64,000 nucleotides of DNA from an uncultured virus (IMG/VR IMGVR_UViG_3300031963_000089). Lineage: Duplodnaviria; Heunggongvirae; Uroviricota; Caudoviricetes. The DNA is taken from positions 1 to 64,000 of the IMG/VR virus record IMGVR_UViG_3300031963_000089; one strand, written 5' to 3'. Below, in pieces: positions 27,028 to 55,547 of this stretch; positions within the stretch are counted from its first letter, which is position 1, and every line of letters starts with the position of its first letter. The position numbers and the translations under genes are program-made. The notes beneath the pieces are model-generated. The model saw only the letters and a program-made list of their open reading frames with translations. It was not told the DNA's origin and made no database searches.

Positions 27028-30000
27028 TTATATATAGTTAAAATTGTTTGCAGTTGTATAAACAAGTCCTAAAGTGAACGAACCACCCGCCGCTCCATCA
27101 ACACCACTTGTTCCTGATGAACCTGAACCAGAACTTCCTGATGAACCACTTGAACCAGAACCTGATGTTCCTGATGAACCAGCAGTACCTGAAGAACCAC
27201 TTGAACCAGAACCTGATGTCCCAGATGAACCCGCGGTACCTGAAGAACCACTTGAGCCAGAACCTGAAGTCCCCGATGAACCCGCAGTACCTGAAGAACC
27301 ACTTGAACCAGAACCTGATGTTCCTGATGAACCAGCAGTACCTGAACTACCTGATGAACCCGAACTACCTGAAGTACCTGATGTTCCAGATGAACCGCTA
27401 GTACCACTACTTCCATTTGACCCTGAAGTTCCCGATGAACCTGAAGTACCTGATGACCCTGAAGTTCCCGATGAACCACTAGTTCCTCTTGAACCCGTAC
27501 TACCCGATGAACCAGAGCTTCCTGATGACCCACTTGAACCCGAACCAGATGTTCCTGAAGAACCTGAACCTGATGACCCACTTGAACCAGATGTTCCACT
27601 AATACCATCTAGACCACTTGTTCCTGAAGAACCTGAACCTGAACTTCCTGATGACCCAGCACTTCCTGATGTTCCCGAAGAACCGCTAGTTCCTGATGAA
27701 CCTGAACCAGAACTTCCCGATGACCCAGCGCTTCCTGATGTTCCTGAAGAACCACTTGTTCCACTACTTCCTGTGATACCCGACGAACCAGAACTACCTG
27801 ATGAGCCAGCACTTCCTGATGTTCCTGAAGAACCACTTGTTCCACTTGAACCAGAACTACCCGATGACCCAGCGCTTCCTGAAGTTCCACTTGTACCGCT
27901 AGAACCTGAAGTTCCCGATGAACCACTGGTACCTCTTGACCCTGTACTTCCTGAAGAACCTGAACTTCCACTTGAGCCTGATGAACCTGATGTTCCCGAA
28001 GAGCCGCTAGACCCACTTGAACCTGATGAACCTGACGAGCCACTCGAACCAGATGTTCCTGATGAACCGCTAGTCCCCGAAGAACCTGAACCTGAACTTC
28101 CTGATGACCCAGCACTTCCACTTGAGCCAGAGGTACCCGAAGAACCTGACGTTCCGCTACTACCTGTAATACCCGATGAACCAGAACTTCCTGATGAACC
28201 ACTACTACCTGATGTTCCTGAACTACCACTAGTTCCACTACTTCCTGTAATACCTGAAGAACCTGAACTACCACTACTTCCTGATGAACCACTAGTTCCA
28301 CTACTTCCTGTAATACCTGAAGAACCACTACTTCCTGATGAACCACTAGTTCCTGATGAGCCAGACGTTCCCGAAGAACCAGTATTTCCACTAGAACCTG
28401 AAGAACCACTTGTACCCGATGAACCCGATGTTCCACTAGAACCCGATGAACCACTTGAACCAGTGCTACCTGAAGAACCGCTAGTTCCTGATGTACCTGA
28501 TGAACCTGAAGTTCCTCTTGAACCTGTACTTCCTGAAGAACCAGAACTTCCGCTTGAACCTGATGACCCACTTGAACCTGAAGTTCCTGATGAACCACTA
28601 GTTCCTGATGAGCCAGCACTTCCTGATGACCCTGAACTTCCTGAAGAACCTGAAGTCCCTGAACTACCACTAGTTCCACTACTTCCTGTTAAGCCTGAAG
28701 ACCCACTACTTCCTGAAGAACCACTTGTTCCTGATGAACCTGATGTACCAGAACTACCTGTATTACCTGAACTCCCACTTGAACCTGAACTTCCTGAAGA
28801 GCCTGAAGTTCCAGAACTACCACTTGTACCCGAAGAACCTGTATTACCCGAACTTCCACTTGAACCAGCACTACCTGATGAACCGCTAGTTCCAGAAGAA
28901 CCTGATGTGCCAGAACTTCCAGTAATACCTGATGAACCTGAACTACCACTTGAACCTGAGCTCCCTGAAGTTCCAGAACTTCCACTAGTACCCGATGAAC
29001 CTGTATTTCCACTTGAACCTGAACTACCCGCACTTCCACTTGAACCCGATGTTCCTGAACTTCCACTTGTTCCTGATGAACCTGTATTACCCGAACTTCC
29101 GCTACTTCCTGAAGAACCACTTGACCCTGAAGTACCCGAAGAACCAGATGTTCCTGAACTTCCACTTGAACCAGAAGAACCGCTAGTCCCTGATGTACCT
29201 GAAGAACCACTTGTTCCTCTTGAGCCCGTACTACCTGATGACCCTGAGCTTCCACTTGAACCTGAGCTTCCTGAAGTTCCAGAAGAACCACTTGTTCCAC
29301 TACTTCCAGTATTACCTGACGAACCTGACGACCCACTTGAGCCAGAAGAACCTGAAGTTCCAGAAGAACCACTTGTTCCACTTGAGCCAGCACTTCCGCT
29401 AGACCCCGAACTACCTGAAGAGCCAGAAGAACCTGATGTTCCACTTGACCCAGAAGTTCCTGATGAACCACTATTACCCGAAGAACCTGAGCTTCCACTT
29501 GAACCAGAAGAACCTGATGTTCCTGAAGAACCTCCAGTACCACTTGAGCCAGTACTTCCACTACTACCTGATGAACCCGAACTTCCTGATGTACCTGAAC
29601 TACCACTAGTCCCTGAAGAACCTGTATTTCCACTTGAACCCGAACTACCCGAAGAACCCGATGAACCTGTACTACCTGAACTTCCACTTGAGCCTGAAGA
29701 CCCTGATGTTCCACTACTACCCGATGTACCTGAGCTTCCACTAGACCCTGACGAACCACTTGAGCCAGAAGAACCTGATGTTCCAGAACTTCCACTAGTA
29801 CCGGATGAGCCAGTGTTTCCGCTTGAACCTGAACTACCCGAGCTTCCTGAAGAACCACTTGTACCTACTGAACCTGAAGTACCAGCACTACCGCTAGAAC
29901 CACTACTTCCACTTGAACCTGATGAACCTGAGCTTCCACTAGAACCAGAACTACCTGATGTACCAGAACTTCCGTTAGAACCTGATGTACCTGAACTTCC

Positions 30001-34938: not shown

Positions 34939-35032
34939 TTATTCTTTCCTTTTTTCCCTATCCAAAAGAAAATTCTTCTATGTTTATTTGTTAATAAATA
35001 TACTTGAAAAGTATTCTGTCAATCCTAAAATG

Positions 35033-38000: not shown

Positions 38001-41000
38001 AACCTGTACTTCCACTTGAGCCAGAACTTCCACTAGTACCTGTTGAGCCAGAACTTCCACTTGAACCAGAAGAACCCGATGTACCAACACTACCTGAACT
38101 ACCACTAGAACCTGAACTTCCTGATGAACCACTAGAACCTGAAGTTCCAGATGTACCAGAAGAACCTGTTATTCCAGAACTTCCACTTGAACCTGACGAG
38201 CCTGAAGACCCTGATGTACCGACACTACCACTAGAACCAGACGTTCCACTTGAACCTGTACTTCCGGATGAACCTGAACTACCTGAGGTACCCACAGAAC
38301 CTGATGTTCCTGAACTACCTGAACTACCTGATGTACCCGCAGAACCTGAAGAACCACTTGTCCCCGATGTACCTGAGCTACCACTATTACCTGAAGTTCC
38401 GCTAGTACCATTAGTACCGTCAACACCACTCAAACCTGAAGAACCCGATGTTCCAACACTACCTGAACTACCACTACTACCACTTGACCCCGCACTTCCT
38501 GAAGAGCCACTTGTACCAGCAGTTCCTGAAGTACCAACAGAACCAGAACTACCACTTGAACCCGAAGAACCTGATGTTCCAACACTACCAGAACTTCCTG
38601 AAGAGCCTGTACTTCCACTTGAACCTGATGTTCCTGCAGAACCAGAACTTCCTGAAGAGCCTGTGCTTCCACTTGAACCTGATGTTCCTGAACTACCTGT
38701 TATACCACTTGAACCTGAACTTCCTGAGGAACCAGAAGAACCTGATGTTCCCGAAGAGCCAGTTAGTCCTGAACTTCCACTACTACCACTAGACCCTGTA
38801 CTTCCTGAAGAACCTGAACTACCAGAAGTTCCAGATGTACCAGTACTACCTGATGTCCCTGAAGAACCATTAACACCAGAACTTCCTGATGAACCTGTAC
38901 TTCCACTACTTCCTGATGTCCCACTTGAACCTGAAGTTCCACTTGAACCTGAAGTTCCAGCAGAGCCAGAGCTACCACTTGAACCTGAGCTACCAGCACT
39001 TCCGCTTGAACCTGATGTTCCTGAGCTACCGCTTATTCCACTTGAGCCTGATGAACCAGCACTGCCACTTGAGCCTGATGAACCTGATGTTCCTGTACTA
39101 CCTGATGACCCCGTACTTCCACTTGAACCAGAACTTCCAGATGTTCCAGATGAACCTGTTAAACCTGAACTACCCGATGAACCCGAAGAACCTGTGCTAC
39201 CTGACGTTCCTGAACTACCACTAGTGCCTGAAGAACCTGTGCTACCTGACGTTCCGCTAGTACCTGAACTTCCAGTTAATCCACTACTTCCAGAACTTCC
39301 ACTTGAACCTGATATTCCTGAACTTCCTGATGAACCCGTACTTCCACTTGAACCTGACGAACCAGCACTACCTGATGTACCAGAAGAACCTGTTAACCCA
39401 CTTGAACCTGATGACCCTGATGAGCCTGAAGAACCCGAAGAACCCGAAGAACCCGAAGAACCCGATGTACCACTTGAACCTGTACTTCCTGAAGAACCAC
39501 TTGAGCCCGAACTTCCTGATGTACCTGAACTACCAGTAATACCACTTGACCCACTAGAACCTGAAGAGCCTGATGTACCACTAGAGCCTGAAGACCCTGA
39601 TGTTCCTGAAGTTCCAACACTTCCCGAAGAACCACTTGAACCTGAAGAACCAGATGTTCCTGAAGTTCCAACACTTCCCGAAGAACCACTTGAGCCCGAT
39701 GAGCCACTTGAGCCTGAACTACCTGATGAGCCAGACGTACCTGAAGTTCCAGATGAACCTGAGCTACCTGAAGAACCACTTGTTCCTGATGAACCTGAGG
39801 TACCACTTGAACCTGAGGTTCCAGCACTACCACTACTTCCTGATGTTCCTGAACTACCACTTGTACCAGAACTTCCTGATTCACCTGATGAACCAGAACT
39901 TCCTGAAGAACCATCCGCTCCATTATGAATCCAAGAAAATGTATATGTGCTACCACTTGTTAAATTACCATTACAAGTAAAAGGTATGTCTAAAGTAATA
40001 TCCCAATAAGGTCCATTATTAACTATAGTTAAAATTTTGTAAATACCTAATATAGGAAAATTACCAACTTCTTCAATCTGTAAATAAACTTCTTGACTTA
40101 AATTGATAGAATCTTGAATTGCGGTTAACCAATTATCATAATTAATATTATAAACATCATTATCTGCAATAGATATATAATTTACTGAACATAACTCATT
40201 AATGTTTGTTGCAAAAAACCCTTGGTTAGGGTCATTTGGGGTAACTATAGATGATGTCCATAACCATCTACCGCTATTAGCACCGTCATTACCACTATAT
40301 CCACTTGAGCCAGATGTACCAGATGTCCCACTAGCACCATCAACACCGTTTATACCACTTGTTCCAGCACTACCACTTGAGCCAGAGCTACCCGATGTAC
40401 CCGAACTTCCTGAAGAACCGGCGGAACCTGAACTCCCTGACGTACCGCTAGTACCATCACCACCTGAAACGGTAATACCTGTAACACTTACAACGGTACC
40501 ATCACTATTATATAATTCTAAAGTGCTTGTACCTGAAAAGAACGTACCACCAGTTAATTCTGTTCCTTGAGCAAAAACTCTCCATCTCGCATCATTTCTT
40601 GATGTTCCACTAACACCTTCAATTGTTGAACCTGTCCAAGCGTTAATAAATGCCTGTCCTTCAGGTGTATTATTTTTTACAATTGTCTCATAAGATAATT
40701 GAGTAACAGAATTAGCACTTACCGCAGCGTCCCATAAATCGTTATAGTTGTCTATTTGAAATTGGTATGCCGTTTCAGTTTCATTAACCCAAACAATCAT
40801 ACCTAACCTTCTTCTACCTGATGAAAAATTATCAGAGTTAAGGGTTAAATAAGTCGGCATAAATGTACCATTACCAATTGTGATATTAATTGGGATAGTA
40901 TTTGCACTAAGTTGTTGTTGTCCCTTCCCACTAAATGACAACCCTAAATTAGTAAGGTAAGCGGCTTCTTGCCAACCCCCAACATTTAAGACGTTAAAGT

Positions 41001-41085: not shown

Positions 41086-41113
41086 TTTGTTACTTACTAA
41101 TAATTATCTTTTT

Positions 41114-42319
41114 TTAGGTTTTATATACCCCTTTGAAGTAGTAATTATTTTTATCAGGAAGTTTTGGTGGTAACAATCCGTCATTAGATAAGTATAAAAT
41201 TCTATATGTTCCCGCAGGTATTGAACCACCTGAGGTTATAACATCCCCAACCGAAATTTTAGGGTCAGGAGTTGCTAAAATGTCAAAGTCACAAGGTTGT
41301 GACTGATAGCCCACATTTACACTCATATTATTCAAAGTTCCTCCGACACCATCAAGTGGTATCCAAATCGTATACATGTACTGTAAACTAGTATTAATAT
41401 CACTATTATTAACTTCAATAGTTTCAAATGTGTATTGGTTAATCAAACATCCAAAACTATCTTTAATCGTACTTGGGAACTGATTTAAAGCACCTTTTAA
41501 GTTTGTAGGTTGTACAAAGTTTCCTGTTCCACCTGTAAATCCTGAGTATGATGCGTATTTGTTCATCATATAACTGTAATTTGGACTTGTTGGTAATGGA
41601 AGCGCTCCTGAATTACCCCATCCGTACCAACTAACATTAGTGTCAGGTGTTACACCATCCGCTAAGTAATACATATAACTTCCTAATCCAAACAACGAAC
41701 CACCTGCAGAAGAATCTTGAGGTTCTGCAAATACGTAAGCATAATACAAAGGTTTTGTAATAGATGGTGTTGGAGTAAATGTTGGTGTTGTAGTAACTGT
41801 TGGTGTAACAGTTTGTGTAACACTTGGTGTAAGAGATATTGTTGGTGTAACACTTGGGGTAATTGATGGTGTCGGTGTTGGTGTCGCTGGTAGAGCCGGC
41901 GCATTACAACATGGTCTATCAATAATGTAAGGATTATTAGTCGGATAAGAGTAAGAATTTAAACTAAAACTACTTAAAACACTTATATATAATTTTTCAG
42001 GTAACGGTATGATAACAATCCCCTGAGATGACTGTTTTAAAAACTGAACTAAAAACTTACCTTCATTTTTTGTTTCTCTACTTGTGAATTGATAATTCAC
42101 ATAATAAGTAATATCTAAAGGATTTACTGTAGACGCACTTGTTGTAATATAACATTCTTTGGATGCAACAATATATTTTTTATTAACTTCGTCATATACC
42201 GAAATTAAAATTGTATTACCCGAAATATTTTCATCTAAACCAAAATCACTTCTTCCGTTTTTTGATACCTCAACTTGGAAAACTGGTAACGTTGAATTTT
42301 TCTTAATAAACCATTCCAT
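41114..42319 (-). CDS. virion protein: BppU-like N-terminal domain, Pro/Thr linker, C-terminal domain shared with 54543..55547 (start re-assigned to MEWF)
   Basis: MEWFIKKNSTLPVF parallels MEFFINKGATLPVL of the adjacent gene. TPTP tract, then YAYxFxEP...YFxG domain. Confidence 0.7.
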   Translation of the reverse strand: MEWFIKKNSTLPVFQVEVSKNGRSDFGLDENISGNTILISVYDEVNKKYIVASKECYITTSASTVNPLDITYYVNYQFTSRETKNEGKFLVQFLKQSSQGIVIIPLPEKLYISVLSSFSLNSYSYPTNNPYIIDRPCCNAPALPATPTPTPSITPSVTPTISLTPSVTQTVTPTVTTTPTFTPTPSITKPLYYAYVFAEPQDSSAGGSLFGLGSYMYYLADGVTPDTNVSWYGWGNSGALPLPTSPNYSYMMNKYASYSGFTGGTGNFVQPTNLKGALNQFPSTIKDSFGCLINQYTFETIEVNNSDINTSLQYMYTIWIPLDGVGGTLNNMSVNVGYQSQPCDFDILATPDPKISVGDVITSGGSIPAGTYRILYLSNDGLLPPKLPDKNNYYFKGVYKT

Positions 42320-42320
42320 A

Positions 42321-42689
42321 TTAGATAGATACGTAACTATTACCAATTTTTATCGTTAGTTTTTCTCTGATTGGTAAAATGTAAGTTCCTGTATCAGTAA
42401 TAAAAACAAACTCCCCTTCATAAAGACCTTCTCTACTTGTATCACTTGAAGTGAATTTATAATAAACATAATATTCTGTCTCAGCGTTTGGGTCAACAAA
42501 TGTCTTCTCAACAAACCCTCCTTTCTTATTCAGAATCTTATATGCTCCCGTTTTAACATCTATCATGGAAAAGTAAATCAACGAGTTTTCGATTATTGAC
42601 ATGAACTCTGTTATGTCAGCAATACCATCTTTAACCACTTGCATTTTAAGAACAGGTAGTGTTGCACCTTTGTTAATAAAAAATTCCAT
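42321..42689 (-). CDS. BppU-like baseplate/adaptor domain protein, 122 aa
   Basis: YxFTSSDTSREGLYEGEF...ILP pattern. TATTTAT motif at 42710-42704. Confidence 0.6.
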   Translation of the reverse strand: MEFFINKGATLPVLKMQVVKDGIADITEFMSIIENSLIYFSMIDVKTGAYKILNKKGGFVEKTFVDPNAETEYYVYYKFTSSDTSREGLYEGEFVFITDTGTYILPIREKLTIKIGNSYVSI

Positions 42690-42718
42690 TAATAGTTTTT
42701 TAAATAAATATCAAAAAA

Positions 42719-44389
42719 TCAACATTCTTTCCTTAAATTACTATCATAATGTTCAAATCTATCATGTTCGGTAGGTGTGAGTAGTAAAATACCAGGTTTT
42801 AACTTACCTTTAATTGTGTTTTGGAAGTTGTGAGACATCAAAGTTTGTTCATATGGGTGTTGATATTTTGTCTCCAAATAACATTTATAACTCCCACTTT
42901 TAGAAAGAATAATTGGCCAGTTACATAAATAAATTTCCCCTGACGCATATGGAATACCCTTATGTGTTTTTATCTCGTTGAACTTTGTTTTTGGTGCGTT
43001 TGGGTCTAAACCATGTTGTGGTAATCTTGGGTTTTTTGGCCAATGTTGTTCTCTGAAATTTTGTGGGACATTATACCAACTCCATTGTGTACTATTATCA
43101 CCATAAAATTCTGTGAAATTTAATTTTAGGAAATCAAAGTTTTCTTTATTAACTATCTCTAAACTTTTCTGATATAGATTACTTACATATCTATTAAACC
43201 CATTTCTACACACTTCATTTTTTTGTGAGTAAAAAAACATGTCGTCCTCAAAAAATAACATATAGTCCAACCCTGTTTCATCAAAATGTTCAGCAATCCA
43301 TTGTCTTCCACCTGTAATACCTATATTATCTTTTTTAATATGTTCAAAATCATATTCTTTACAAAGTCTTAAATATTCTTCGGTTGTTGATAGGTCGGTT
43401 GAGTTATCCAATAAAAACTTTTTTGGTTTATCTAAAAAATCTCTATCGTATTCAATCATGGATTGAATTAATGTTTCAAATTGTTTTGGTGAATTAAATG
43501 TTATTACATATAACGCAACTTTATCAATATCTAAATCGTTTTGGATTTTAACAAACTCTGTCTTTTTAACTAAAACATCATCTTTTAAATTTTCGAAGAA
43601 TTTTCCAAATAAACCGTTATAATCGATTTCAAAATAATTTATATATTCTTTTAACTTATAAACCATTATTGAAAATATTGATTCCTCAGTTCCCATGTAC
43701 CCACTCGATAGTGTATCATTCAATAGATTATAATATTCACCATTCATCTGTGATATGGTTTCTTTCGGTCCACCAAAAAATCCTCCACGAGCAACTTTCT
43801 TTACATCATCTTCAGCCCATTCGTTAATCTTTGGGTATGAAAATCCGTGTATCTCATTATTAGCGTCATATGGGAAACAAACGAATGTAAACTTATCAAT
43901 ATACTTACTTAAATTATTTAAAACCTTATCGTGTGTGAAATATCCTGGATGAACTGTATTTGTAAGTCCAGCATCAATCCAAAATAAAAACTCTGAATTA
44001 AATCTGTCAAAAATCCTTGCGTCGTTTAACAAAAACATTTTAGACATAACAAGAGGATTATACATTTCTAATCTACCTTGTGTCGATTCTTTTAACCAAC
44101 CTGATTGATTATACCATTCAGGGTTATTTCTAATTTCTTGTATCTTATTATAAAAGTCATTTTCAACAAACCAACTCTTATCTCTTAAAATAAATTGAGT
44201 ATTACTTTGGTCTCTTCTTTCCCAAACAAAATCCTCTAATTCTTTTTCACCAAAAATTATTAAGTTTTCCTCAACCTTTAATAGTTGTTCAAATTTTTCT
44301 AAATAATGTGAAAAAGAACGAGACCAACCTTCTTCAAGGTTTTCTCTACCAATATTCCACAATCCTGTAACTAATGTAATATTACTCAT
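42719..44389 (-). CDS. two-domain glycosyltransferase: HtrL/YibB(WlaTC)-like fused to a GT-A/GT2-like domain
   Basis: TLVTGLWNIGR, FWIDAG, RGGFFGG and GTEESIF. The second domain has VITFN...FFEDDM. Confidence 0.75.
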   Translation of the reverse strand: MSNITLVTGLWNIGRENLEEGWSRSFSHYLEKFEQLLKVEENLIIFGEKELEDFVWERRDQSNTQFILRDKSWFVENDFYNKIQEIRNNPEWYNQSGWLKESTQGRLEMYNPLVMSKMFLLNDARIFDRFNSEFLFWIDAGLTNTVHPGYFTHDKVLNNLSKYIDKFTFVCFPYDANNEIHGFSYPKINEWAEDDVKKVARGGFFGGPKETISQMNGEYYNLLNDTLSSGYMGTEESIFSIMVYKLKEYINYFEIDYNGLFGKFFENLKDDVLVKKTEFVKIQNDLDIDKVALYVITFNSPKQFETLIQSMIEYDRDFLDKPKKFLLDNSTDLSTTEEYLRLCKEYDFEHIKKDNIGITGGRQWIAEHFDETGLDYMLFFEDDMFFYSQKNEVCRNGFNRYVSNLYQKSLEIVNKENFDFLKLNFTEFYGDNSTQWSWYNVPQNFREQHWPKNPRLPQHGLDPNAPKTKFNEIKTHKGIPYASGEIYLCNWPIILSKSGSYKCYLETKYQHPYEQTLMSHNFQNTIKGKLKPGILLLTPTEHDRFEHYDSNLRKEC

Positions 44390-44949
44390 TCTGTATCTCT
44401 AACTTTATAGATTATATAATCAACAAATTCACTTTCAAACATTTGTCCTATCTCTTCATAAAAAATAACATCTCCAAAAACATCTTCTTGAAACATCGGT
44501 AAATTATGTGTGTTTGGAATCACACCCATACATTTACCTACATTACCTCTTGTGAAATCTTTTAATTTCCAATTAACATCACCTAACCAATTGTGTTTGA
44601 ATATGTATAACTTGTTTTTATCTTTAACACTTTCTTTAATTACTTTGAATGCTTCTTCAGTGTATCTATCATCATCATCGGCAAACATTATAAAATCACC
44701 TTCTAATGAATTAATGTTCTCATTAATTAATGGATGTCCGTATTTCCACTTTTGTTCCCCTTGATTTAATATATGATTAACTTTGAATTTAAACTCATAT
44801 CTTGATAATACTTCTGAAACAAAGTCGTGATTAATATCAGAGATTATTGTAAAAATATCTGTTGGGTCTAATTGGTCTTTGAATGACTCAATTAATCTTG
44901 GCAGTGTTTCTCTCCCGATTGAAGTACAAACAATATTAAGACTAAACAT
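44386..44949 (-). CDS. GT2-like glycosyltransferase
   Basis: VCTSIGRETLPRLIES...IISD...GDFIMFADDDD. Confidence 0.8.
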   Translation of the reverse strand: MFSLNIVCTSIGRETLPRLIESFKDQLDPTDIFTIISDINHDFVSEVLSRYEFKFKVNHILNQGEQKWKYGHPLINENINSLEGDFIMFADDDDRYTEEAFKVIKESVKDKNKLYIFKHNWLGDVNWKLKDFTRGNVGKCMGVIPNTHNLPMFQEDVFGDVIFYEEIGQMFESEFVDYIIYKVRDTE

Positions 44950-45805
44950 AACATTTCTCCCTTACATATTTTGTTTCATCATAAATGTCTAAAATTTCTA
45001 AAAACGCTTTTTGTAAGTCTAACCAATCACCAAATTCAAAAGCGTGACATTCATCCGAATGTTTACCTGTAATAGCCGTGAGAACTTCTTGTTCACTAAT
45101 AAGTTGGTTATGTGTTGTTAAGTATTGATTAAAAATGTCTAAATATCCATTTAAAATATGTCTAACTTTTTCTGATGTTCCACCGAATAGACATCCAGGA
45201 ACAACCTTTAATTCAACACCAAATAGTTGATTGAATTTAGAAACTGTTTCATAGTTCATCACAATTGAATTACCTTTCAAATGAATAAACCCGTGTTGGT
45301 TTATTTTATCAACCACCTTATCCAAAAAGTTTTTTGAATTAATTAGTGGAGCCATATAATCTCTCCACCCATCATGACAAGACGTTCCAATCAAACCAGC
45401 ATCAATCCAAAAGATATTATCACAATCATGTGATTCATCAATTAAGAATTTAAGTTTATTTAAAACAACTTCTAAATAATTGTTAACACAATAAATTCTA
45501 TCATAGTTAATTCCACCCGATAATTCTTGAGTTCTAATTCTATCAATTAATTCACAAGTTTCAGAAGTATTTAATTCTTTAAATTTAAATTCAACATTTG
45601 GAAAATTAAATTCATACTTTAAATTGAACTTATCATATGAATTTTGGTCAGTATAAATTACGTAACGATATTCAGGATAAATTATGTTTTTAATTGTTGC
45701 AACCAATAATGAAAAATTTTTATATCTCTCACTATTAATTCCTTCAACATATTTTAATTCATAAATCGCCGAAATTATTTTAGTACCATTTGTCATGTTC
45801 TGCAT
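44942..45805 (-). CDS. HtrL/YibB-like putative glycosyltransferase
   Basis: VIYTD, FWIDAG, PGCLFGG and SEQEVL. Paralogue of the N-terminal domain of 42719..44389. Confidence 0.7.
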   Translation of the reverse strand: MQNMTNGTKIISAIYELKYVEGINSERYKNFSLLVATIKNIIYPEYRYVIYTDQNSYDKFNLKYEFNFPNVEFKFKELNTSETCELIDRIRTQELSGGINYDRIYCVNNYLEVVLNKLKFLIDESHDCDNIFWIDAGLIGTSCHDGWRDYMAPLINSKNFLDKVVDKINQHGFIHLKGNSIVMNYETVSKFNQLFGVELKVVPGCLFGGTSEKVRHILNGYLDIFNQYLTTHNQLISEQEVLTAITGKHSDECHAFEFGDWLDLQKAFLEILDIYDETKYVREKCYV

Positions 45806-46490
45806 ATATTATATTTGATGCTTTATAAGCATTATTTTTTATTTCAATTCCATTCAATAATGCCGAGAAACACATCTCATCTATGTTACCAGCGGGTATG
45901 TTTCTTAAACCTTTTTCTTTTTTATATTCAATACACTTGTCCCAAGTATCTAAAAAACTATTAAACTTATCTTCATCAATACTCAAGTATTGAATACAAT
46001 CTTCAGGCATAACCTCCAACTTATCTTTATCAACCTCATGATTGAAATACTTTTCATACTCAAGTAATCGTCTACCTAATTCACTATTGGTATGAACTTG
46101 TTCGTTAAAATTATATGTTACAGGCCCTGATAAACAATTTTCATCAAACGCCCCCAAAATCTTTTCTTGATTAAAAAAAGATGGGTTAACTCTCATATCA
46201 CAATCAACTAATATGATTTTAGTAAAACCAATACTTAAAGCAGCTCTTAACGAATATCTTTTAACTGAAAAATCAAAGTCATAGTAGTTTTTAGCATACT
46301 CCAAATAATTTGGATTAAAATCATTAATGTTAAAAGTGTGGACAAATTCTTGATTATTAATCTTACTTGGGTCATCAGTAATGACAACCAAATTTGTTTT
46401 ATAATCTGATTCTATGATATCACCAATAAATCTATTAACTTGGTTATAATATCTTTCACCAAAACAAAAAGTAGCAAATGTAAATTTCAT
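45780..46490 (-). CDS. putative GT-A fold glycosyltransferase
   Basis: FATFCFGERY, VITDD, KRY, ILVDCD (DxD) and a C-terminal DE..F..L. Located inside the GT operon. Confidence 0.6.
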   Translation of the reverse strand: MKFTFATFCFGERYYNQVNRFIGDIIESDYKTNLVVITDDPSKINNQEFVHTFNINDFNPNYLEYAKNYYDFDFSVKRYSLRAALSIGFTKIILVDCDMRVNPSFFNQEKILGAFDENCLSGPVTYNFNEQVHTNSELGRRLLEYEKYFNHEVDKDKLEVMPEDCIQYLSIDEDKFNSFLDTWDKCIEYKKEKGLRNIPAGNIDEMCFSALLNGIEIKNNAYKASNIIYAEHDKWY

Positions 46491-46493
46491 ATC

Positions 46494-47738
46494 TTATAAA
46501 TTTCCTGTTATTCTATCACACCATCCTTTAGATTCCGAGTGTGGCCAAACCACCCAATATTTAGGTTTTGAATCAGTTAAGAACTCTCTCCAAACTTTAC
46601 AATAACCATCAGGGTCTCTTAGCATTCTATCAACTTCACCTTTATCAGCATCTTGTCTGTAAATGGTTTCATCTAATTCATTATGGAACGCAACAACCCA
46701 AAAGTCATAATCCTTTTCAGGTACTTGAGTAAACCCAATATCAATACAATGTTTGAATACTGATGTAAATGATTTTAACCATTCTTCTTCTGAATTGAAG
46801 TTATTTGGATTAGGTGGATAACCTTTATCTAATGTATATTGTTGAACGGCTCTCTTTGAAAAGAGTAGTCCTGAATATTTTTCATAATCTCTTAAACTTC
46901 TAACTTTACCAAAACCATATTTTCCGTGATTCATATTTTCCTCACCATCCATACCAAATAGAGAACGATTTTTCTTGTGAGCAAAATTATTCTTATCCAC
47001 CCATTGTTTATCGTCGTCCCATTGTTTGGTTCTACCTTTGCGAGTATATTCATGCCAAATCAAAACTTTGTGTGGGTGGAATAAATCATATCCGTGAGTG
47101 TAAGCTCTTGCGGCAATTGAAATCTCTTCTCCGTGAAAATAAAACTCAGGGTCGTGTTGAACTTCTTTAGCGAACTTACCAAGAGTAAAACAGAAGTGAG
47201 CGGAATAAAATCTTGCGGTAACAGGTTCAGTTAGATTTTGCCAACCAGGAATTGTTTCAGGTAAAAAGAAAACCGCACCTTCAGGAATAAATCTATCAAA
47301 CGCCATTCTCCACGGCTCGTTAACACGTAAACTTGGGTCATTGTCAGGGTCAAATGATGAAACATATCCTGTCAATAAAGGTTTCTTATATCCTTTCTTT
47401 TGAAGTTGTTTAATCATCTTAATCATCTCATCATCCCAATCTTCAGCAAACCTCATGTGTGAGTCAATTTGAAGAGTGTAATTTTCCTTATCATACACTT
47501 GTTGTATTTGATTTCTCGCCCAACATGCTCCTCTAGATTCATAATAAGGAATATCAATTATTCTAAATCTTTCATCATCTCTATATTCATCTAAATTATC
47601 AAAATTATCATCGCGATGATACTGACGAGCAATACCGAAAACTAAGTTTTCAGGTCGTTTAGCATTTTCTAATGCAGATTTTATAGTTGGGATTAACTGT
47701 GGGTCTCTATAAGACGCAACTTGTATAAAAATTTTCAT
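46494..47738 (-). CDS. GT60-like polypeptide alpha-N-acetylglucosaminyltransferase (Skp1 Gnt1 / GlcNAc family)
   Basis: IFIQVASYRD, GACWARN, QIDSHMRF..WD (DxH) and FHGEEISIAARAYTHGYDLFHP. Confidence 0.88.
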   Translation of the reverse strand: MKIFIQVASYRDPQLIPTIKSALENAKRPENLVFGIARQYHRDDNFDNLDEYRDDERFRIIDIPYYESRGACWARNQIQQVYDKENYTLQIDSHMRFAEDWDDEMIKMIKQLQKKGYKKPLLTGYVSSFDPDNDPSLRVNEPWRMAFDRFIPEGAVFFLPETIPGWQNLTEPVTARFYSAHFCFTLGKFAKEVQHDPEFYFHGEEISIAARAYTHGYDLFHPHKVLIWHEYTRKGRTKQWDDDKQWVDKNNFAHKKNRSLFGMDGEENMNHGKYGFGKVRSLRDYEKYSGLLFSKRAVQQYTLDKGYPPNPNNFNSEEEWLKSFTSVFKHCIDIGFTQVPEKDYDFWVVAFHNELDETIYRQDADKGEVDRMLRDPDGYCKVWREFLTDSKPKYWVVWPHSESKGWCDRITGNL

Positions 47739-47791
47739 GTAAACGTTTTACCCAAAATGTATTAATTTTAAATAAAAATTAAAGAAATAAA

Positions 47792-48598
47792 TTAATAAGT
47801 TTGAGCAGTTTGATATGTTTGTCTTGCAACAGTTGCAGTAAAGTTATTTACAGTATGTAGCGTAGTCCATGTTGTTCCATTATTACTACCCGCAATAGTC
47901 CATGATTTAGGGTCTCTACTTTCAGCATCATTTGCGGTAGCCCATCTATATCCATTAAATGTTTTAGCAGTTGAGAACTGAAATATAAAATTAGTAACAT
48001 TTCCGTTTGAGACAAAGTTTAAATCTAATCCTTTTGTTGCCAAATTACCATCAATTAATTTTGAGGGTTCTTCACCTACAGGATTACTACCACCAGGATT
48101 TGTAACGGTAACACCCGTCATACTTTGGTCAACACCATTTAACCTAAAAACAAATTCAGCAGCCTGTACAGCATTAGCATCAGGTGGCGATGTCTTTGTT
48201 TGAGTTATTTGCCATCTATAATAAGTAAATGAACTAACATAAGATGTCCAATATCCTGATGAGTTCAACCATGTTTTAGCCGCGGATGCACTTGCAAATG
48301 TTTGTGGTGTTCCCGTAAAACTTGATACGTACTGAGACAAACTAATAAAGTTATTATCTGTCTTACCTGATGTTCTCCAAAAACCAATATAAGCAGGAAC
48401 TCCAACAGGATTTGGTTGTGTTCCTGATGGAACAGTATGAGCAATCACATAACCCAAATCTTCATCAGGCCCATTCCACCATCTTAAACCTGTGGATGTA
48501 AACCCACTTGTTGGTGTACCAATAGCAATACTTCCGACTTGTTCTGTCCCTGATATTGTTGAACCTGTGTTATATGCGAAGGGTCTTGATGTTGCCAT
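47792..48598 (-). CDS. virion protein with C-terminal F5/8 (discoidin-like) carbohydrate-binding domain
   Basis: KLIDGNLATK...YRWATANDAESRDPKSWTIAGSNNGTTWTTL. Confidence 0.75.
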   Translation of the reverse strand: MATSRPFAYNTGSTISGTEQVGSIAIGTPTSGFTSTGLRWWNGPDEDLGYVIAHTVPSGTQPNPVGVPAYIGFWRTSGKTDNNFISLSQYVSSFTGTPQTFASASAAKTWLNSSGYWTSYVSSFTYYRWQITQTKTSPPDANAVQAAEFVFRLNGVDQSMTGVTVTNPGGSNPVGEEPSKLIDGNLATKGLDLNFVSNGNVTNFIFQFSTAKTFNGYRWATANDAESRDPKSWTIAGSNNGTTWTTLHTVNNFTATVARQTYQTAQTY

Positions 48599-48603
48599 TT
48601 TAT

Positions 48604-50421
48604 TTATAATCCATATTTTGATTTAGTATTATTATAGTTTGTTGTTACATCACTGGCGGTTAATCCTGTGGTATAAAAATAACAGGCACCTATTTTACCA
48701 TTTAAATAAAGTGATGATATACCAGTACCAATGTAACCCAAATAAAGAGGGTTAGTTTCACTATATGTATCAGTACCATGAGCGGTTGTTATATATTCGG
48801 TATTATTAATATACACTTTGGTGGTATTAGCAGTTGAGGTAATTCGTGAAACAAATGTAAATAAATACCAAGTATTAATTGAAACGGTTAACGTAGAGTC
48901 GGATATTTTTTGAACCCCCGTTCCATTTGTAACTACCCTCACAACGCCAGCATTCGAGAATAACCCACCCCAATACCCATCAAATCCAAATGAACTGGAT
49001 AGTTTTCCAAAGACCGGAACTTGTTGACCTGAACTAGGTAAAACGTCAAATTTAACCCAAACTTGTATTGTTCTTTGGGTTGTAGTATTTAAACTAAGAT
49101 TAGCAGTATGAGGTATACTTATTGTATTACTAGTCCCATTTAAATCAAAAATACCTCCGTCAGTAGACAACCAAGTGGCACCATTTATAGTTGCGTTATT
49201 CCCATTCCCCGTTTCATCAGTCCAAGTACCACTAACATAATTAGTTGCATCTAACTTCATAAATAAATTACTACTAATTACCCCACCCTCACTTGTTGAT
49301 GACGGAGTAATTGTTGGTGTTGGTGTAATTGTATTTGTTGGGGTTTGTGTTGGTGTTGGAGTATTAGTTTGAGTGTTAGTAGGTGTAATTGTTGGTGTTA
49401 TTGAAGGTGTTGGAGTTTGAGTATTAGTTGGAGTTGGAGTAGGTGATGGTGAAATAAATCTTGATGAAAATGAATTAAAGTTTGTTAACACTTCTGTTGA
49501 ACTTAAAACTCTATTGTAAGTCATTGCAATTGAAACTCTACCATTTAATAAATTACCTCCTGCGCCATAAGAACCAATCCTTGTAGAACCATTACCACTT
49601 ACAGGTGTTTTTTGAGCAGTATATGTACTATCCTGAACACCATTAACATATAGAATGAAACCATTTGTTGTGTCAAAAGTAAGACATGCATTATACCAAA
49701 CACCATTACTAAAACTTGTTGTTGAGGGATAAACACCATAATTACCCCAATTTGAGTGTCCACAGTATAATTTATTTGAACCTGCAAAATACATAAAGTG
49801 TCCACCCGTATCGCTACTTAATAAGTTGTTATCAGCAGTTGAGTTTAGGTAAAACCAAACGTTTTTAGTATATGCTGTTATTCCAACAGGAGTACCTGCA
49901 ACGTTAACATATTGATTACTTCCGTTAAATGTAAGGTATCCATTATTACTTGAACTGAATGTCGGAGTATTAATTAATGTTCCGTTGTTACCACTAAAAC
50001 TTAAATCATCCCATCGTGAACCACTTCTTGGATATGATGAAACATAACCAGCATCAAGTAATAATGTTAATCCATTAGTTACAATATCAGGATAATCAAG
50101 GTTAACACAAATAAGTCCTGTTTGACCTGTATACCATCCTAACGCTTCGTTAGCGGTACTAAATGTTTGACCTGCAAATCCTTGAGTAAACCCAATAAGT
50201 TCTGAGTCGTTTTGAGCAACCACTATGGATGGTCCGGCAACAGCCTTGTTTCCATACATGGTATAACCACCTGATGGTGGTATAATAGAATTCCAAAATC
50301 CTGTAACACTTGTTGGCCCGTATTCCGCACCTTCATTAATACCTAAAACCCAATCCTTAACTTTAATCGTATTAGGATGAAAGGACGTTGAGTATTTTAT
50401 TTTATTTGGTGGTATTGGCAT
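48604..50421 (-). CDS. virion protein with two LamG/concanavalin A-like domains joined by a Pro/Thr linker (start re-assigned to MPIPP)
   Basis: IVTNGLTLLLDAG..SYP..G..WxDLS and LFMKLDA...WTDETGNGNNAT. TAATG overlap at 50421. Confidence 0.85.
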   Translation of the reverse strand: MPIPPNKIKYSTSFHPNTIKVKDWVLGINEGAEYGPTSVTGFWNSIIPPSGGYTMYGNKAVAGPSIVVAQNDSELIGFTQGFAGQTFSTANEALGWYTGQTGLICVNLDYPDIVTNGLTLLLDAGYVSSYPRSGSRWDDLSFSGNNGTLINTPTFSSSNNGYLTFNGSNQYVNVAGTPVGITAYTKNVWFYLNSTADNNLLSSDTGGHFMYFAGSNKLYCGHSNWGNYGVYPSTTSFSNGVWYNACLTFDTTNGFILYVNGVQDSTYTAQKTPVSGNGSTRIGSYGAGGNLLNGRVSIAMTYNRVLSSTEVLTNFNSFSSRFISPSPTPTPTNTQTPTPSITPTITPTNTQTNTPTPTQTPTNTITPTPTITPSSTSEGGVISSNLFMKLDATNYVSGTWTDETGNGNNATINGATWLSTDGGIFDLNGTSNTISIPHTANLSLNTTTQRTIQVWVKFDVLPSSGQQVPVFGKLSSSFGFDGYWGGLFSNAGVVRVVTNGTGVQKISDSTLTVSINTWYLFTFVSRITSTANTTKVYINNTEYITTAHGTDTYSETNPLYLGYIGTGISSLYLNGKIGACYFYTTGLTASDVTTNYNNTKSKYGL

Positions 50422-53400
50422 TATCTTGCAACTTCTGTTATTCTTAACCACATTGATGTAGCCCCATTTACTATTGTAATACTATCATCCGCAGAATCTC
50501 TACGACACGCAACAACTACTGATTTTGCAGTAGTGTTAGAGTTAGTATATCTTCCCGTTAATGGAAACAATACACCACTACGATTACCATTTACAGTACT
50601 TTGTTTTGAATATGTTATTTCACTACCATCAATTTTTATTCTAGAAAAATATGAGTCATTACCTGTACCACTAGCAAAACTATAATCCGCTAAATGATAA
50701 TGTATCACTAAATAACTTGTAGAACTTAATGGTGTATAACTATAAGTAACAAAATCAGTATCCGAAGTACTGGTAGCAATAGTTGTAGTACTAACAGTTA
50801 CCTCAGTATTACTCAAAATAATATCGTTAATTACCTGACCGGCTCTCCATGCATTAGCCTTTATAAATCCTGTAAATACCACATTACCTGAAGTGTCTAC
50901 GGCCATCTTTACAGCCCCACCAGTTTCATTTAATTTATTTGTGATACGAACTAACTGTCCACTTAAAACATCAAATGAACCGTTCCAACTATCAATACCA
51001 TAGTTTGAATTATTAGCATAATAAAACAAAACACCCGGAGTATCTGTACTATTATTATCAAGAATAACATCACCAGTAGCTGACCCCGCCCTTGTAAATG
51101 TTCCGTTACCAAGAGAGGTTACACCTGTAGTACTTATATTACCAGTAATAGTCGTGGAACCAATAATTGTTGTATCACCTGTTACCGCCAGTTTAATTCC
51201 ATCAAAAGTCATTTTAGCTTGAGCAACCGCAGCGTTAGCTGTTCCATCAGATGTTAATATTCTATTACTACCCGGACTTGTAATTGTAGTAAATCCAGTA
51301 CCTGATGTTCCAGCAGAACCTGAACTACCCGATGAACCTGATGTACCAGAACTACCTGACGTACCAGAGCTACCACTCGTTCCTGATGTACCCGAAGAAC
51401 CTCTTGAACCTGATGTACCACTACTTCCACTTGACCCTGAAGAACCTGATGTTCCACTTATCCCATCTAAACCACTTGTTCCCGATGAACCACCATTACC
51501 TGAGGTACCACTACTTCCTGACGTTCCTGAAGAACCCGATGAACCACTACTACCACTAGTACCTGAACTACCCGAAGACCCTGATGTCCCACTACTTCCA
51601 CTTGAGCCCGAACTTCCCGAAGAACCACTAGTTCCAGATGTACCTGAAGTTCCGTTAACACCACCTGTCTGATAATATGTATTACCACTAGTATCAACAA
51701 CAACATAACGAGTATTTCCTGTTGAACTTGTAATTCCTGTAACAGTTAAACTACTTGTTGTTGTTCTACCTGAACCATTAAAATGAATTCTATCAATACC
51801 TGAACCATCTTGAATAACTAACACATTGTCGGCATCCGACGCACTACCTCTTCTAAAAGTAATTCCATCAAGAGTTGAGTTAGTTGTTATTTCTGGTTCA
51901 GATGAGTTGTTATATGCTTGTTGTAATGTAGTTGTCGCAACACCTCCCGCAGAACCTACAGTTTCACCAAATTTTGATGCAAAAAAGAATTGAGCTTTAG
52001 ATGAATCACTTAAATCAGTTGCAGTACTTACAACTGATAAAACACCAATTAAAATACCATTACTTGTAAAATTACTAAACGTATTAAATTGTTCAGTTGC
52101 AAGACCAGCGATTGCTGCAGATAACTGATTATATTCTGTTTGACCATATTGAACTCTAAATTGACCATTTTGAACCAAATAAATTCTTTGGTTGGTTGCC
52201 TTTGTTCCTGTAAGAGGAGTAACAACTCCACCAACATCATAATTTAACGGGTCAATAAATGTTGTATTTGATGCGGTACCACCTGTTTGTGTTCGATATT
52301 GAAAAGTACAAGGACTTGTACCTGTAACATATAACGCGTTTGGAGTTAGTGTACTTGACGCAAAATTAATACCTAAACCATAAAGATATCCTGCACTTGT
52401 ATTAAAACTTAAATTAACACCATTAGCTGACGGATATATTCCACCATTTATAAGATTAATAGGAACAAACATGTCCCTGAGTTGAGCTAATGGAGATAGT
52501 ACAAAATCAGGTTGACTGAACGCGTTAATAATATTTGTTTTGTTTGCATGACCTAATTTACCTAAAAATATATTTTGTCTTCTTTGTTGTTCCGTTAGTT
52601 CAATATTTGATTGAGCAATAGTCGACCCACTTGTAAGATATACCCAAGTCTCAGTATCAGTATTAACATATATTGCAGTATGAGTACCACCACTATAATC
52701 AACATAATAGATTTGAGGACTTAATGGATTTGTTGTATCATCAACTATCCACCCTTTAACAGGTGCAACTCTAAACGTTGTTGTGGATACAATTGATAAT
52801 CCTGTAAATACAAATACACCTGTTGAGTTATTAACAGTACTTCTATCTTGTCCTAAAATTACCCATTGAGAACCATTACTCACAAGTTGTGCGGCGTTTG
52901 TTTCACTTAGAATTAATAAAGTTTTATCGTCAATCTTTTCACTCCCATAGGGTAGAATAGTTACCGCACCTCCACCATTATTTTTGATAGCTAATAGTCG
53001 ACCTTGAATACCAACTGCGGTTGGTAATTGTACATTAAAGGTACCACCAGTAATGTCCACCATATAATCTGAAGGTGTAATATTATATGTACTAGTAACG
53101 GTTTTTTGAGGAAATGTGATACCACCTGTAGATGTTATCCCACTAGTCTGAGTTAAACCTGTAACAGTTAAAGTACTAGCGGTTAATCCGCTTGTAAAAT
53201 AAGTATTACCATAAACAGTTCCACCAGTTAATGGTAAGTAATCACCACTAACACCTCCACCACCTGGTATGGTAACTGTAACCGCAGGACCTCCTGTTGC
53301 ATTAACACCTGAGCCAACAAAATCAATAGATGTTACCCCTGATGTTAATAAACTACCTTCGTTATAAATCGATATAGCGTTTCCTGATATACCACTACTT

Positions 53401-54533: not shown

Positions 54534-54542
54534 TTACTATAA

Positions 54543-55547
54543 TTATATATCAACCTTACTTCCTCTAAAATAAAGGTCGTAAGTATTATCCAATTCAAAT
54601 GTATTTGATGGGTATGTAGTATAAACTCTATAAGTTGTTTTTGCAATAGTATTACCCGTATAAGTAAATGTATTAGTATAAATTGTCGGTTCCATCTTTA
54701 CACTTGTAAAGACATTTGGATTTACAATTCCTAAATCAATCTCAATCTGATATTGGTTATTTGTTAAATTAGTCGGTATTATCCAAGTGTACCATGCTTT
54801 ACATCCAATAGTATTTTCAGGTACTTTAACTGTTGGGAAATTATATCGAATATACGGATTACCATATGTATCAAATCCCCCACTTGTTCCTGGCACAATT
54901 TGTTTTATAATACTTGGAAACAATCCTGTTGTCCATCCCGAAAAATTAACATATTTATTCATGTCCAAATCAAATGTACTCGCTGAACTACTCGGTTGTG
55001 TAGTATTTGTAAACCCATAAAAACTTGAGCCAAGTGAGTTCATGTATGAACCAATACTTGATGAACCTGAATACGGTTCAATGAATAAATAAGCGTAAAT
55101 AGGAGTTTCAGGTGTCACAGTTGGAGTAGGGGTTCTTGTAACAGTTGGAGTAATTGTCTGAGTTGGGGTATGAGATGGTGTAACTGTTTGTGTAGGTGTA
55201 ATACTTGGTGTTATACTCGGTGTCGGTGTAAATGATGGAGTGATACTTGGTGTTGGAGTATTTGACGGAGTTAAAGAAATTGTTGGAGTAACACTTGGAG
55301 TAATACTTGGTGTTGGTGTTGGTGTTACACATATATATTCTTGTGTAAAAACACATCCTGTTGAATCAACTATTTTAATTAAAACTTTTGGTGCCGATGA
55401 ATATGGACTCGGAATATTAAAACTAACAGATGGTGGAATATAATCATATATAGTTGTCACAGTTTGACAAGAATATTGAAATATATCACAAACTGAAATA
55501 ACATAAGGAGGTGTTCCTCCCAAACTATCTATTGTTACTAAACTCAT
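54543..55547 (-). CDS. virion protein: Cys-rich N-domain, Pro/Thr linker, C-domain shared with 41114..42319
   Basis: GGTPPY...KIVDSTGC, a TPTP tract and IYAYLFIEP...LYFRG. TATTTAT at 55560-55554. Confidence 0.8.

Follow-up and report, generated by a model that had tools for sequence, protein, structure and literature searches.

The DNA analyzed here, called the window below, covers positions 1 to 64,000 of a viral contig of 75 kb from an uncultured freshwater giant phage (IMG/VR record IMGVR_UViG_3300031963_000089; Caudoviricetes). Between positions 47738 and 42719 it carries five minus-strand genes for glycosyltransferase (GT)-type enzymes, P0001 to P0005 (Table 1), which we refer to as the cassette and which probably glycosylate fibre proteins of the phage. 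The minus strand holds almost all genes in the 27- to 64-kb part of the window, and the PHROG matches of the window include a sigma factor, SbcCD, a primase, and many tail-fibre families. The GC content is about 0.30 in the window and 0.46 to 0.49 across the genes encoding long repeats. The cassette open reading frames (ORFs) are translationally coupled, with one 3-nucleotide (nt) gap followed by overlaps of 26, 8, and 4 nt, and the PHROG tail-fibre matches around them place the cassette inside a tail/fibre module, as had been proposed from the letters of the window alone (below, the sequence-only reading). No terminator-like site was found in positions 40900 to 50600, versus 3.6 ± 1.9 in shuffled sequences, and a promoter scan gave 52 sites versus 51.3 expected, i.e., no signal over expectation.

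Enzymes of the cassette and their variable middle block

The first gene of the cassette encodes a GT60-type enzyme. P0001 matched the Pfam family PF11397 ("GlcNAc", GT60) with an E value of 2.7e-68 and 231.4 bits against a cut-off of 21, over profile positions 95 to 349 plus a second stretch, and it matched phrog_24687 over residues 2 to 411 (E 7.6e-171). Conservation of some 120 additional residues at the C terminus is confined to the phage homologues. The residues D92-S93-H94 were invariant in an alignment of 10 homologues (50 to 100% identity) and may correspond to the metal-binding Asp-x-His/Asp catalytic motif of characterized GT60/GT27 enzymes. A search of solved structures by sequence gave no match for P0001 alone or for the 10-sequence profile.

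Neither P0002 nor P0003 matched a Pfam or NCBIfam family. The model of P0002, built with 32 homologues, had a pLDDT (predicted local distance difference test) of 91.6, and its top Foldseek matches in the PDB were GT6 enzymes (E ~1e-6; template modeling score [TM], 0.5 to 0.6), among them the ABO enzyme GTB (5c48, E 8e-7) and BoGT6a (TM 0.57). By BLAST, P0003 is a paralogue of the N-domain of P0005 (27 to 29% identity over ~150 amino acids [aa]), and its homologues matched residues ~110 to 257 of P0005 with 24 to 29% identity; P0003 also resembled the syntenic ORF332 of the cultured Xanthomonas jumbo phage XacN1 (22% identity, E 1e-5). P0004 scored 22.9 bits against the GT2 family PF00535, just below the cut-off of 23.3, which a 65% identical homologue from locus L056 cleared with 27.3 bits; its PglI-like NCBIfam match was weak (E 2.7e-5) and far below the cut-off.

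P0005 is a two-domain protein. Its residues 3 to 261 matched HtrL_YibB (PF09612; E 2.7e-13, 50.6 bits, cut-off 24.1), and the top whole-chain Foldseek matches of its model, built with 31 homologues (pLDDT 89.5), were the tandem GT-A enzymes LH3, Mimivirus R699, LARGE1, K4CP, and COLGALT1. Residues 1 to 268 of the model aligned to GT6 enzymes (Z 13.0 to 13.2, root mean square deviation [rmsd] 3.4 to 3.6, 196 aligned), and residues 285 to 556 aligned to B4GALNT1 (Z 15.5, rmsd 3.7, 202 aligned), GnT-I (Z 15.4), and POMGnT1 (Z 15.2). The nearest viral structural neighbours of P0005 turned out to be giant-virus multidomain GTs. Given the families, the folds, and the paralogy of P0003, the earlier count of six GT-type domains in five coupled genes stands, with the enzyme families as then named. 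Hydrophobic segments are absent from all five enzymes (the maximum 19-residue Kyte-Doolittle mean was 1.21), and no tetratricopeptide repeat (TPR) family was among their Pfam matches.

P0001 homologues were found by tblastn in only four of 50,697 phage records (XacN1, Xoo-sp13, CM1, and RAS14; 44 to 47% identity), while 412 IMG/VR stretches encode relatives of it. The best 80 of these 412 stretches, with a GT60 enzyme of 75 to 100% identity, were analyzed as related loci; they are interrelated and not independent. A P0005-like gene, encoding the HtrL plus GT-A fusion, lay downstream of the GT60 gene in 73 of the 80 loci (in the other seven, the flank ended first or none was seen), and P0005-like relatives numbered 6,161 among 8,000 scored candidates. 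Between the two genes there were 1 to 13 others, 260 in all, which fell into 104 clusters when grouped at 60% identity and into 61 families by BLAST. Pfam matches were obtained for 43 of the 104 cluster representatives and none for 61. They comprised GT families (GT25, 10; GT10, 6; GT2, 3; PLOD-GT, 2; GT7C, 1; weak GT1, 1), 13 methyltransferases (FkbM, TylF, CmcI, and FtsJ types), acetyl-/acyltransferases (3), DegT aminotransferases (2), and HAD plus nucleotidyltransferase (1), in addition to one Crystallin match that looks spurious. Downstream, within three genes after the P0005-like gene, a gene resembling the N-terminal part of P0009 was present in 64 of the 64 evaluable loci, i.e., those with at least two genes there. 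Read from gene content, this layout is the anatomy of a putative glycan-diversity island within a fibre module. That the middle block is swappable hints at diversifying selection on the surface glycans of phages, comparable to that on bacterial O-antigens.

The cassette of XacN1 has the order GT60, carbamoyltransferase, P0003-like, P0002-like, and P0005-like gene. Its ORF334 is 47% identical to P0001 and its ORF330 42% identical to P0005, while ORF332 and ORF331 are weakly similar to P0003 and P0002, respectively. It adjoins baseplate genes, a GT9 gene, and the gene for a 3,313-aa protein ending in Pro/Thr linkers.

Some relatives depart from this size and content. P0005-like genes encoding 751 to 796 aa, with an extra N-terminal domain, were seen in L018, L032, L040, L051, L055, L068, L072, L075, and L082; that domain is labelled as a TylF-/FtsJ-type methyltransferase in database homologues (P0226, P0228, P0248, and P0253), which would make these three-domain enzymes. 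In L027 to L029, L033, and L074, at least 12 to 13 genes follow the GT60 gene, with two DegT aminotransferases, a GNAT protein, a hexapeptide acyltransferase, and FkbM methyltransferases among the products; the DegT, GNAT, and acyltransferase genes suggest amino- and acyl-sugars. A distant PF11397 homologue (29% identity to P0001, 72.6 bits) is encoded at 8467-9486 of L143, from a much smaller phage (G041, 108 kb, 100% complete).

Pro/Thr linkers and collagen-like repeats

The sequence-only reading had also described about 3,000 residues of G-S/T-S repeat and Pro/Thr linkers on either side of the cassette. Both are present: linkers of 20 to 176 residues occur in four proteins (P0009, P0010, P0011, and P0013), and the repeats amount to 3,147 residues in P0006 (1,515), P0007 (1,470), and P0012 (162). 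The check proposed by that reading, whether GT60 tracks GSS/PT-repeat content across related jumbo phages, came out positive for the linkers and negative for the collagen-like G-S/T-S runs.

We determined the distribution of the linkers among the 80 related loci, in 73 of which a linker protein was encoded within the fetched flanks. Of 71 loci, 56 had a linker ORF no more than two genes upstream of GT60; 26 of 64 had one within three genes after the P0005-like gene. Of the ORFs flanking the cassette, 107 of 342 encoded Pro/Thr linkers, versus 39 of the 921 other ORFs within these nonindependent loci. The comparison was then extended to whole genomes of jumbo phages. A (Thr-Pro)3-coding pattern was found in six of six GT60-positive genomes (6, 6, 11, 29, 26, and 19 matches; reversed-pattern controls, 0, 0, 0, 0, 0, and 1) and in none of eight related GT60-negative ones (Fisher p 0.0003). 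The eight negative controls were picked by homology to the baseplate wedge of XacN1; Xanthomonas phage XbC2 is one of them, and RsoM2USA, the nearest by this criterion, is another. PF11397 was present in all five positives checked (180 to 257 bits) and absent from five controls; the other three controls were assigned by tblastn.

The reverse test started from the linkers. A (Thr-Pro)5 pattern gave at least 129 stretches in IMG/VR, of which 80 loci from 72 contigs were taken. Seven of these loci, on six contigs, encoded a P0001 homologue (29 to 73% identity), and in five contigs a linker ORF lay within two genes of the GT60 homologue (39 to 73% identity). Two contigs, with 39 to 43% identical enzymes, showed a minimal layout of GT60, a 265-aa protein, and a linker protein, with virion-structural PHROG families around. 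PF11397 was found in 6 of 44 searched records picked solely by (Thr-Pro)5 versus 0 of 47 picked by a Gly-Pro-X pattern (p 0.011) and, among records of at least 60 kb, in 5 of 9 versus 0 of 6 (p 0.044).

The carriers of the linkers appear to vary. P0004, P0009, P0010, P0011, P0013, P0014, and the 122-aa protein had no tblastn match at E 1e-3 in six stretches of XacN1, Xoo-sp13, and CM1, and since the Pro/Thr proteins of the window thus have no detectable homology there, the linker carriers of these three phages appear to be of different families. The XacN1 Pro/Thr proteins ORF232 to ORF237, ORF384, and ORF325 matched no Pfam family. ORF232 to ORF237 (L093, 2049-11105) are six neighbouring genes for products of 401 to 746 aa, with (Thr-Pro)3-coding matches across the array.

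The "G-S/T-S repeat" is, as judged by the Pfam Collagen family (PF01391; P0006, E 1.3e-205; P0007, E 2.2e-186; P0012, E 1.3e-19), a collagen-type triplet. Residues 389 to 1843 of P0006 form one uninterrupted run of 485 triplets. Ser or Thr occupies ~92% of the X and Y positions in the P0006 and P0007 runs, from which Pro is absent and in which charged residues number only 5 and 8, respectively; the P0012 runs contain two Pro. P0006 matched PHROG tail-fibre families with E values down to 2e-215, and P0012 matched 14 PHROG families, mostly tail-fibre. At the DNA level the repeats have diverged (periods of 51 to 108 nt, 70 to 93% match). They are not an assembly artefact, since G001, a 242-kb IMG/VR record of the same phage type with an identical GT60, has reading frames of 2,636 and 2,004 aa in the corresponding position.

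Collagen-like runs were within the fetched flanks of only 12 of the 80 related loci, all with a GT60 at least 96% identical. As a conserved partner of the cassette, collagen was rejected: PF01391 was present in G001 and G003 and absent from G002 (100% complete), XacN1, Xoo-sp13, and CM1, i.e., it occurred in two of six GT60-positive genomes and also in two of eight GT60-negative ones. Being rare and not GT60 specific, the collagen rods are no conserved cassette partner. The runs of the window, G003, and L168, three GT60-positive lineages, are Pro free with Ser/Thr at 0.72 to 0.94 of X and Y, and that of L168 belongs to a protein of 260 aa whose gene immediately precedes that of a 43% identical GT60 homologue. 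The collagen runs of the GT60-negative phages Atu_ph07 and Phosso have 12 to 20% Pro and 2 to 10% Ser plus Thr. In this very small sample of three lineages versus two, sequence composition indicates that Ser/Thr-only collagen rods may be a second acceptor.

A collagen triple helix rises 0.286 nm per residue, so that the rods of P0006 and P0007 (~1,500 residues each) would be about 0.4 μm long as triple helices. Glycans can stabilize such a helix, as in the cuticle collagen of the tube worm Riftia, with its galactosylated threonine. The stronger proposal, that these rods fold and keep their stiffness only through O-glycosylation of almost all X and Y positions by the cassette, making a glycan-stabilized "bottle-brush" collagen with a strain-specific surface set by the swappable middle enzymes, strikes us as rather unlikely.

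Two further observations concern collagen-like proteins. Judged by eye, a globular domain with "...AIPSLIVT..." at its end adjoins a Ser/Thr collagen run both in P0012 (residues ~230 to 335) and at 6512-7294 of L168, although the GT60 genes are only 43% identical. In G003 (98% complete), a fibre gene is truncated by the two ends of the record (L224, 2-2248; L225, 150-2114); it has a start like that of P0006 and P0012, Ser/Thr-only collagen, then Gly-Pro-Gln-type collagen, and a C-terminal globular domain, a pattern that points to circular permutation of the assembly and to a chimeric rod.

Table 1. Cassette genes and fibre-related genes of the window
Feature	Coordinates	Strand	Description	Basis or remark
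P0001	46494..47738	-	414 aa, GT60-type (PF11397) glycosyltransferase	First and conserved cassette gene; proposed initiating protein O-glycosyltransferase
P0002	45780..46490	-	236 aa, GT-A fold, GT6-like	AlphaFold model and Foldseek; variable middle block
P0003	44942..45805	-	287 aa, HtrL-like paralogue of P0005 N-domain	BLAST; variable middle block
P0004	44386..44949	-	187 aa, small GT2-like enzyme	Borderline PF00535; variable middle block
P0005	42719..44389	-	556 aa, HtrL/GT6-like N-domain plus GT-A C-domain	PF09612 and model; last and conserved cassette gene
122-aa protein	42321..42689	-	Paralogue of P0009 N-terminal domain	P0009-N-like gene follows cassette in relatives
P0009	41114..42346	-	410 aa; conserved N-domain, Pro/Thr linker 149-201, variable C-terminal domain	Candidate acceptor
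P0014	47792..48598	-	268 aa, weak discoidin-type (F5/8 type C) domain	Next gene upstream of GT60
P0010	48604..50451	-	615 aa; two concanavalin-A-like (Laminin_G_3) domains with Pro/Thr linker 328-386 between them	Candidate acceptor
P0011	54543..55547	-	334 aa; 79-residue Pro/Thr linker 72-150	Candidate acceptor
P0013	16021..18477	+	818 aa, Cys-rich; Pro/Thr linkers, C-terminal beta-propeller	Candidate acceptor
P0006	35089..41085	-	1,998 aa, fibre protein; 505 Gly-X-Y triplets	Pfam Collagen; possible extra acceptor
P0007	27028..34938	-	2,636 aa, fibre protein; 1,080-residue N-terminal part, then 490 Gly-X-Y triplets	Pfam Collagen; possible extra acceptor
P0012	50421..54533	-	1,370 aa, tail-fibre protein; three short Ser/Thr-rich Gly-X-Y runs	Pfam Collagen, PHROG; possible extra acceptor

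Among the remaining proteins of Table 1, P0010 matched PF13385 in two stretches (E 4.7e-26) and the virion structural family phrog_8510 (E 2e-30), while P0014 matched PF00754 with 26.9 bits, below the cut-off of 28.2, and the tail protein family phrog_17517 (E 5.5e-8). Relatives of P0009 keep the N-domain and vary the C-terminal part, the L018 version carrying the C-terminal domain of P0010. The C-terminal region of P0011 resembles that of P0009, and P0011 homologues adjoin the cassette in many related loci. The gene for P0013 lies on the other strand, surrounded by replication genes and separated from the cassette by ~24 kb and from the GT60 gene by ~30 kb; the protein has three linkers (residues 76 to 251, 356 to 389, and 500 to 526, i.e., 176, 34, and 27 residues) and a YNCE/lactonase-type propeller (PF10282, E 3e-15). 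A BppU_N identity of the 122-aa protein and the P0009 N-domain, a lead taken from a protein-atlas cluster in which 10% of members have that family, was rejected: PF10651 matched 0 of 48 relatives at an E value of 0.1 or better.

Proposed O-glycosylation of fibre proteins and its alternatives

We propose, with a probability of roughly 0.6, that with this cassette the phage O-glycosylates virion proteins of its own, those of the fibre type, in the cytoplasm of the infected cell. The proposal builds on what the sequences show, namely, the families and folds of the enzymes, the conserved order of their genes, the exchange of the middle block between relatives, and the joint occurrence of GT60 and Pro/Thr linkers; the acceptor, the sugar, the order of the enzymes, and the benefit are inferred. 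During late expression, the soluble P0001 would use a nucleotide sugar of the host to attach the first sugar to Thr or Ser hydroxyls; by analogy with its family, this sugar would be alpha-linked N-acetylglucosamine (GlcNAc) from uridine diphosphate (UDP)-GlcNAc. The main acceptors would be the Pro/Thr linkers of P0009, P0010, P0011, and P0013, perhaps joined by the Ser/Thr-only collagen-like rods of P0006, P0007, and P0012. The conserved two-domain P0005 would then add core sugars and the swappable P0002, P0003, and P0004 strain-specific outer residues, so that closely related phages would display different glycans. Likely benefits would be protease resistance and stiffening of the linkers, or changed recognition.

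The idea of O-glycosylated virion fibres, as the sequence-only reading had put it, gained partial support, through the enzyme families, the setting in a tail/fibre module, the linker tracking, the absence of hydrophobic segments from the enzymes, and the staining of XacN1 proteins; the repeats as conserved partner did not hold up. That reading had further supposed that the glycans might shield the virion or serve as bait for glycan-foraging Bacteroidota. The GT60 members treated in passages of PMC6939170 are polypeptide alpha-GlcNAc-transferases. For XacN1, the relevant passages of PMC5852040 describe at least two Schiff-stained bands of virion proteins and propose the phage GTs as the source.

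Several results speak against this proposal. In seven of the 80 related loci the fetched flanks lacked a linker, and Pro/Thr linkers occur throughout the genomes, beyond the neighbours of the cassette. The GT60-positive lineages are few, so the Fisher tests overstate independence; the (Thr-Pro)5-picked records were larger on average than their controls, and in L143 the (Thr-Pro) DNA pattern falls on the noncoding strand. Enzymes of the Gnt1 type in GT60 act on hydroxyproline, and no prolyl hydroxylase was found in the 13 Pfam-scanned proteins, the other window proteins having been scanned against PHROGs only. A Schiff stain can also pick up copurifying polysaccharide, and the passages of PMC5852040 that describe the stained XacN1 bands do not name the proteins in them.

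The points on the spread of the linkers and on the stained bands also serve the view that the acceptors are other virion surfaces (capsid, sheath, or tube), with the Pro/Thr linkers and collagen-like rods acting as plain spacers. Mycobacteriophage glycans, as summarized in part of PMC12619734, are indeed found on the C-termini of capsid and tail-tube proteins, the XacN1 glycoproteins lack names (PMC5852040, same passages), and linkers occur far from the cassette as well. If the linkers were irrelevant, however, their co-occurrence with GT60 (6/6 versus 0/8; 6/44 versus 0/47) would be hard to explain, as would the enrichment of linker ORFs directly beside the cassette. Thr/Pro-rich, mucin-like stretches are, moreover, the classic acceptors of protist GT60 enzymes. 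We give this view a small chance.

A different target would be the phage DNA, with a sugar chain built on a hydroxylated base as an anti-restriction hypermodification and the middle block diversifying the DNA glycan. What chiefly favours it, and so weighs against a protein acceptor, is the C-domain of P0005, which is weakly similar to the TET-associated glycosyltransferase TAGT (PF20691; E 0.0027, 18.1 bits) and, over ~80 residues only, to phrog_842 (beta-glucosyl-HMC-alpha-glucosyltransferase; E 2e-5); one homologue (P0212) carries a precomputed PF20691 label. Phage DNA GTs are diverse and build varied glycans, as parts of a preprint report (10.1101/2023.12.21.572611), and G002, XacN1, and Xoo-sp13 have a thymidylate-synthase-family gene (PF00303). 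The TAGT match, however, is below its cut-off of 27.5, the structural neighbours of P0005 are ordinary GT-A and giant-virus glycan enzymes, and the PF00303 matches (262 to 314 bits) are as for ordinary thymidylate synthases. Known DNA glycans are built on a hydroxyl that a ThyA homologue or a 5mYOX/TET enzyme provides, according to the abstract of PMC13326640 and passages of 10.1101/2023.12.21.572611; PF00303 had no match in G003 (98% complete) or G001, which leaves no known route to a DNA hydroxyl there, and Tet_JBP was unmatched in five genomes, in a search that matched no control either. XacN1 genomic DNA was cut by BssHII, NaeI, and SpeI, as stated in a passage of PMC5852040, and the characterized members of the P0001 family covered in PMC6939170 act on proteins. 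With the cassette set in a fibre operon and its presence tracking Pro/Thr linkers, DNA as the target seems very improbable to us.

Equally slight is the likelihood that the cassette makes or alters a nonprotein glycoconjugate of the infected cell (lipopolysaccharide [LPS] core, capsule, or soluble glycan) for superinfection exclusion or release. HtrL/YibB is named from a gene of the Escherichia coli LPS core region, and the GT25, GT9, and RfbT-like families of the variable blocks and of XacN1 are typical of LPS synthesis; the best match of XacN1 ORF328 is in Xanthomonas, as a passage of PMC5852040 states. Against this stand the coupling of the genes to late fibre genes, the polypeptide acceptors of the lead enzyme's family (PMC6939170, in the passages cited above), and the composition of the cassette, in which no membrane-spanning enzyme, flippase, polymerase, or lipid-carrier transferase was seen. 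The association with Pro/Thr linkers would also be left unexplained.

Comparison with known systems and significance

Protein O-glycosylation by the cassette would have its closest enzymatic parallel in protists. P0001 matches the same family, PF11397, as the Gnt1 enzymes of Dictyostelium and Toxoplasma, which act on Skp1 hydroxyproline, and the mucin-initiating enzyme of Trypanosoma cruzi; like Gnt1, it is without a hydrophobic segment. It differs from the protist enzymes in being phage encoded, in lying in a fibre operon, and in its extra C-terminal ~120 residues. In the Skp1 pathway, as outlined in passages of PMC6939170, Gnt1 is followed by the two-domain glycosyltransferase PgtA, and P0005 also has two GT domains; this is a parallel of layout only.

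Among phages, a close parallel is XacN1, which has a homologous cassette, a Pro/Thr-linker protein nearby, and Schiff-positive virion proteins (PMC5852040, in the passages on its virion); it differs by an added carbamoyltransferase and a GT9 gene and is without collagen-like repeats. Passages of that paper name only two GTs and do not mention GT60 or Pro/Thr linkers. Mycobacteriophages also encode GTs that modify their own virion proteins, as cited in part of PMC12619734, with the difference that their glycans are on capsid and tail-tube C-termini, whereas here GT60 is the lead enzyme and fibre linkers or rods are the candidates. The same 2025 paper, on freshwater "moraphages," lists four core GT groups and mentions virion glycosylation as a possibility.

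A glycosyltransferase gene next to a gene for a collagen-like surface fibre is known from Clostridioides difficile, in which SgtA modifies Thr of the BclA3 repeats with O-GlcNAc and accepts Ser-containing repeat peptides as well (passages of PMC7157674). SgtA combines a GT-A domain with TPR repeats and makes a beta linkage, while P0001 to P0005 have no TPR; the BclA3 repeats are Gly-Pro-Thr, in contrast to the Pro-free phage rods, and the phage cassette also occurs without a collagen gene (SgtA and BclA3 features from the same passages of PMC7157674). Giant viruses (Mimivirus and chloroviruses) resemble the present case through the fold neighbours of P0005, Mimivirus R699 included; the viruses and the enzyme sets differ. 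Glycosylation in these viruses is a virus-encoded, host-independent, multienzyme glycan synthesis.

If the proposal is true, a very large group of freshwater and Xanthomonas/Stenotrophomonas jumbo phages makes mucin-type glycoproteins in the bacterial cytoplasm, the size of the group being indicated by the 412 GT60 stretches and the P0005 relatives counted above. The GT60 family was characterized previously only in protists. Virion glycosylation would then extend well beyond the mycobacteriophage cases and account for the glycoproteins of XacN1, and the cassette would offer a compact soluble toolkit that works in the bacterial cytoplasm and O-glycosylates Thr/Pro or Gly-Ser-Ser sequences. Virion glycosylation was already suspected by the XacN1 authors in 2018, as passages of their paper show (PMC5852040). 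In the open-access papers searched, we found none that links GT60 with Pro/Thr linkers in phages or describes the swappable island; one preprint merely lists GT60 among viral genes.

Elsewhere in the window, three tandem paralogous minus-strand genes at 23680-26377, with a local GC content of 0.46, encode extremely Gly-rich products of 292 to 302 aa (P0255 was read), two of the three having weak PHROG matches to "minor tail / tail fiber assembly" families.

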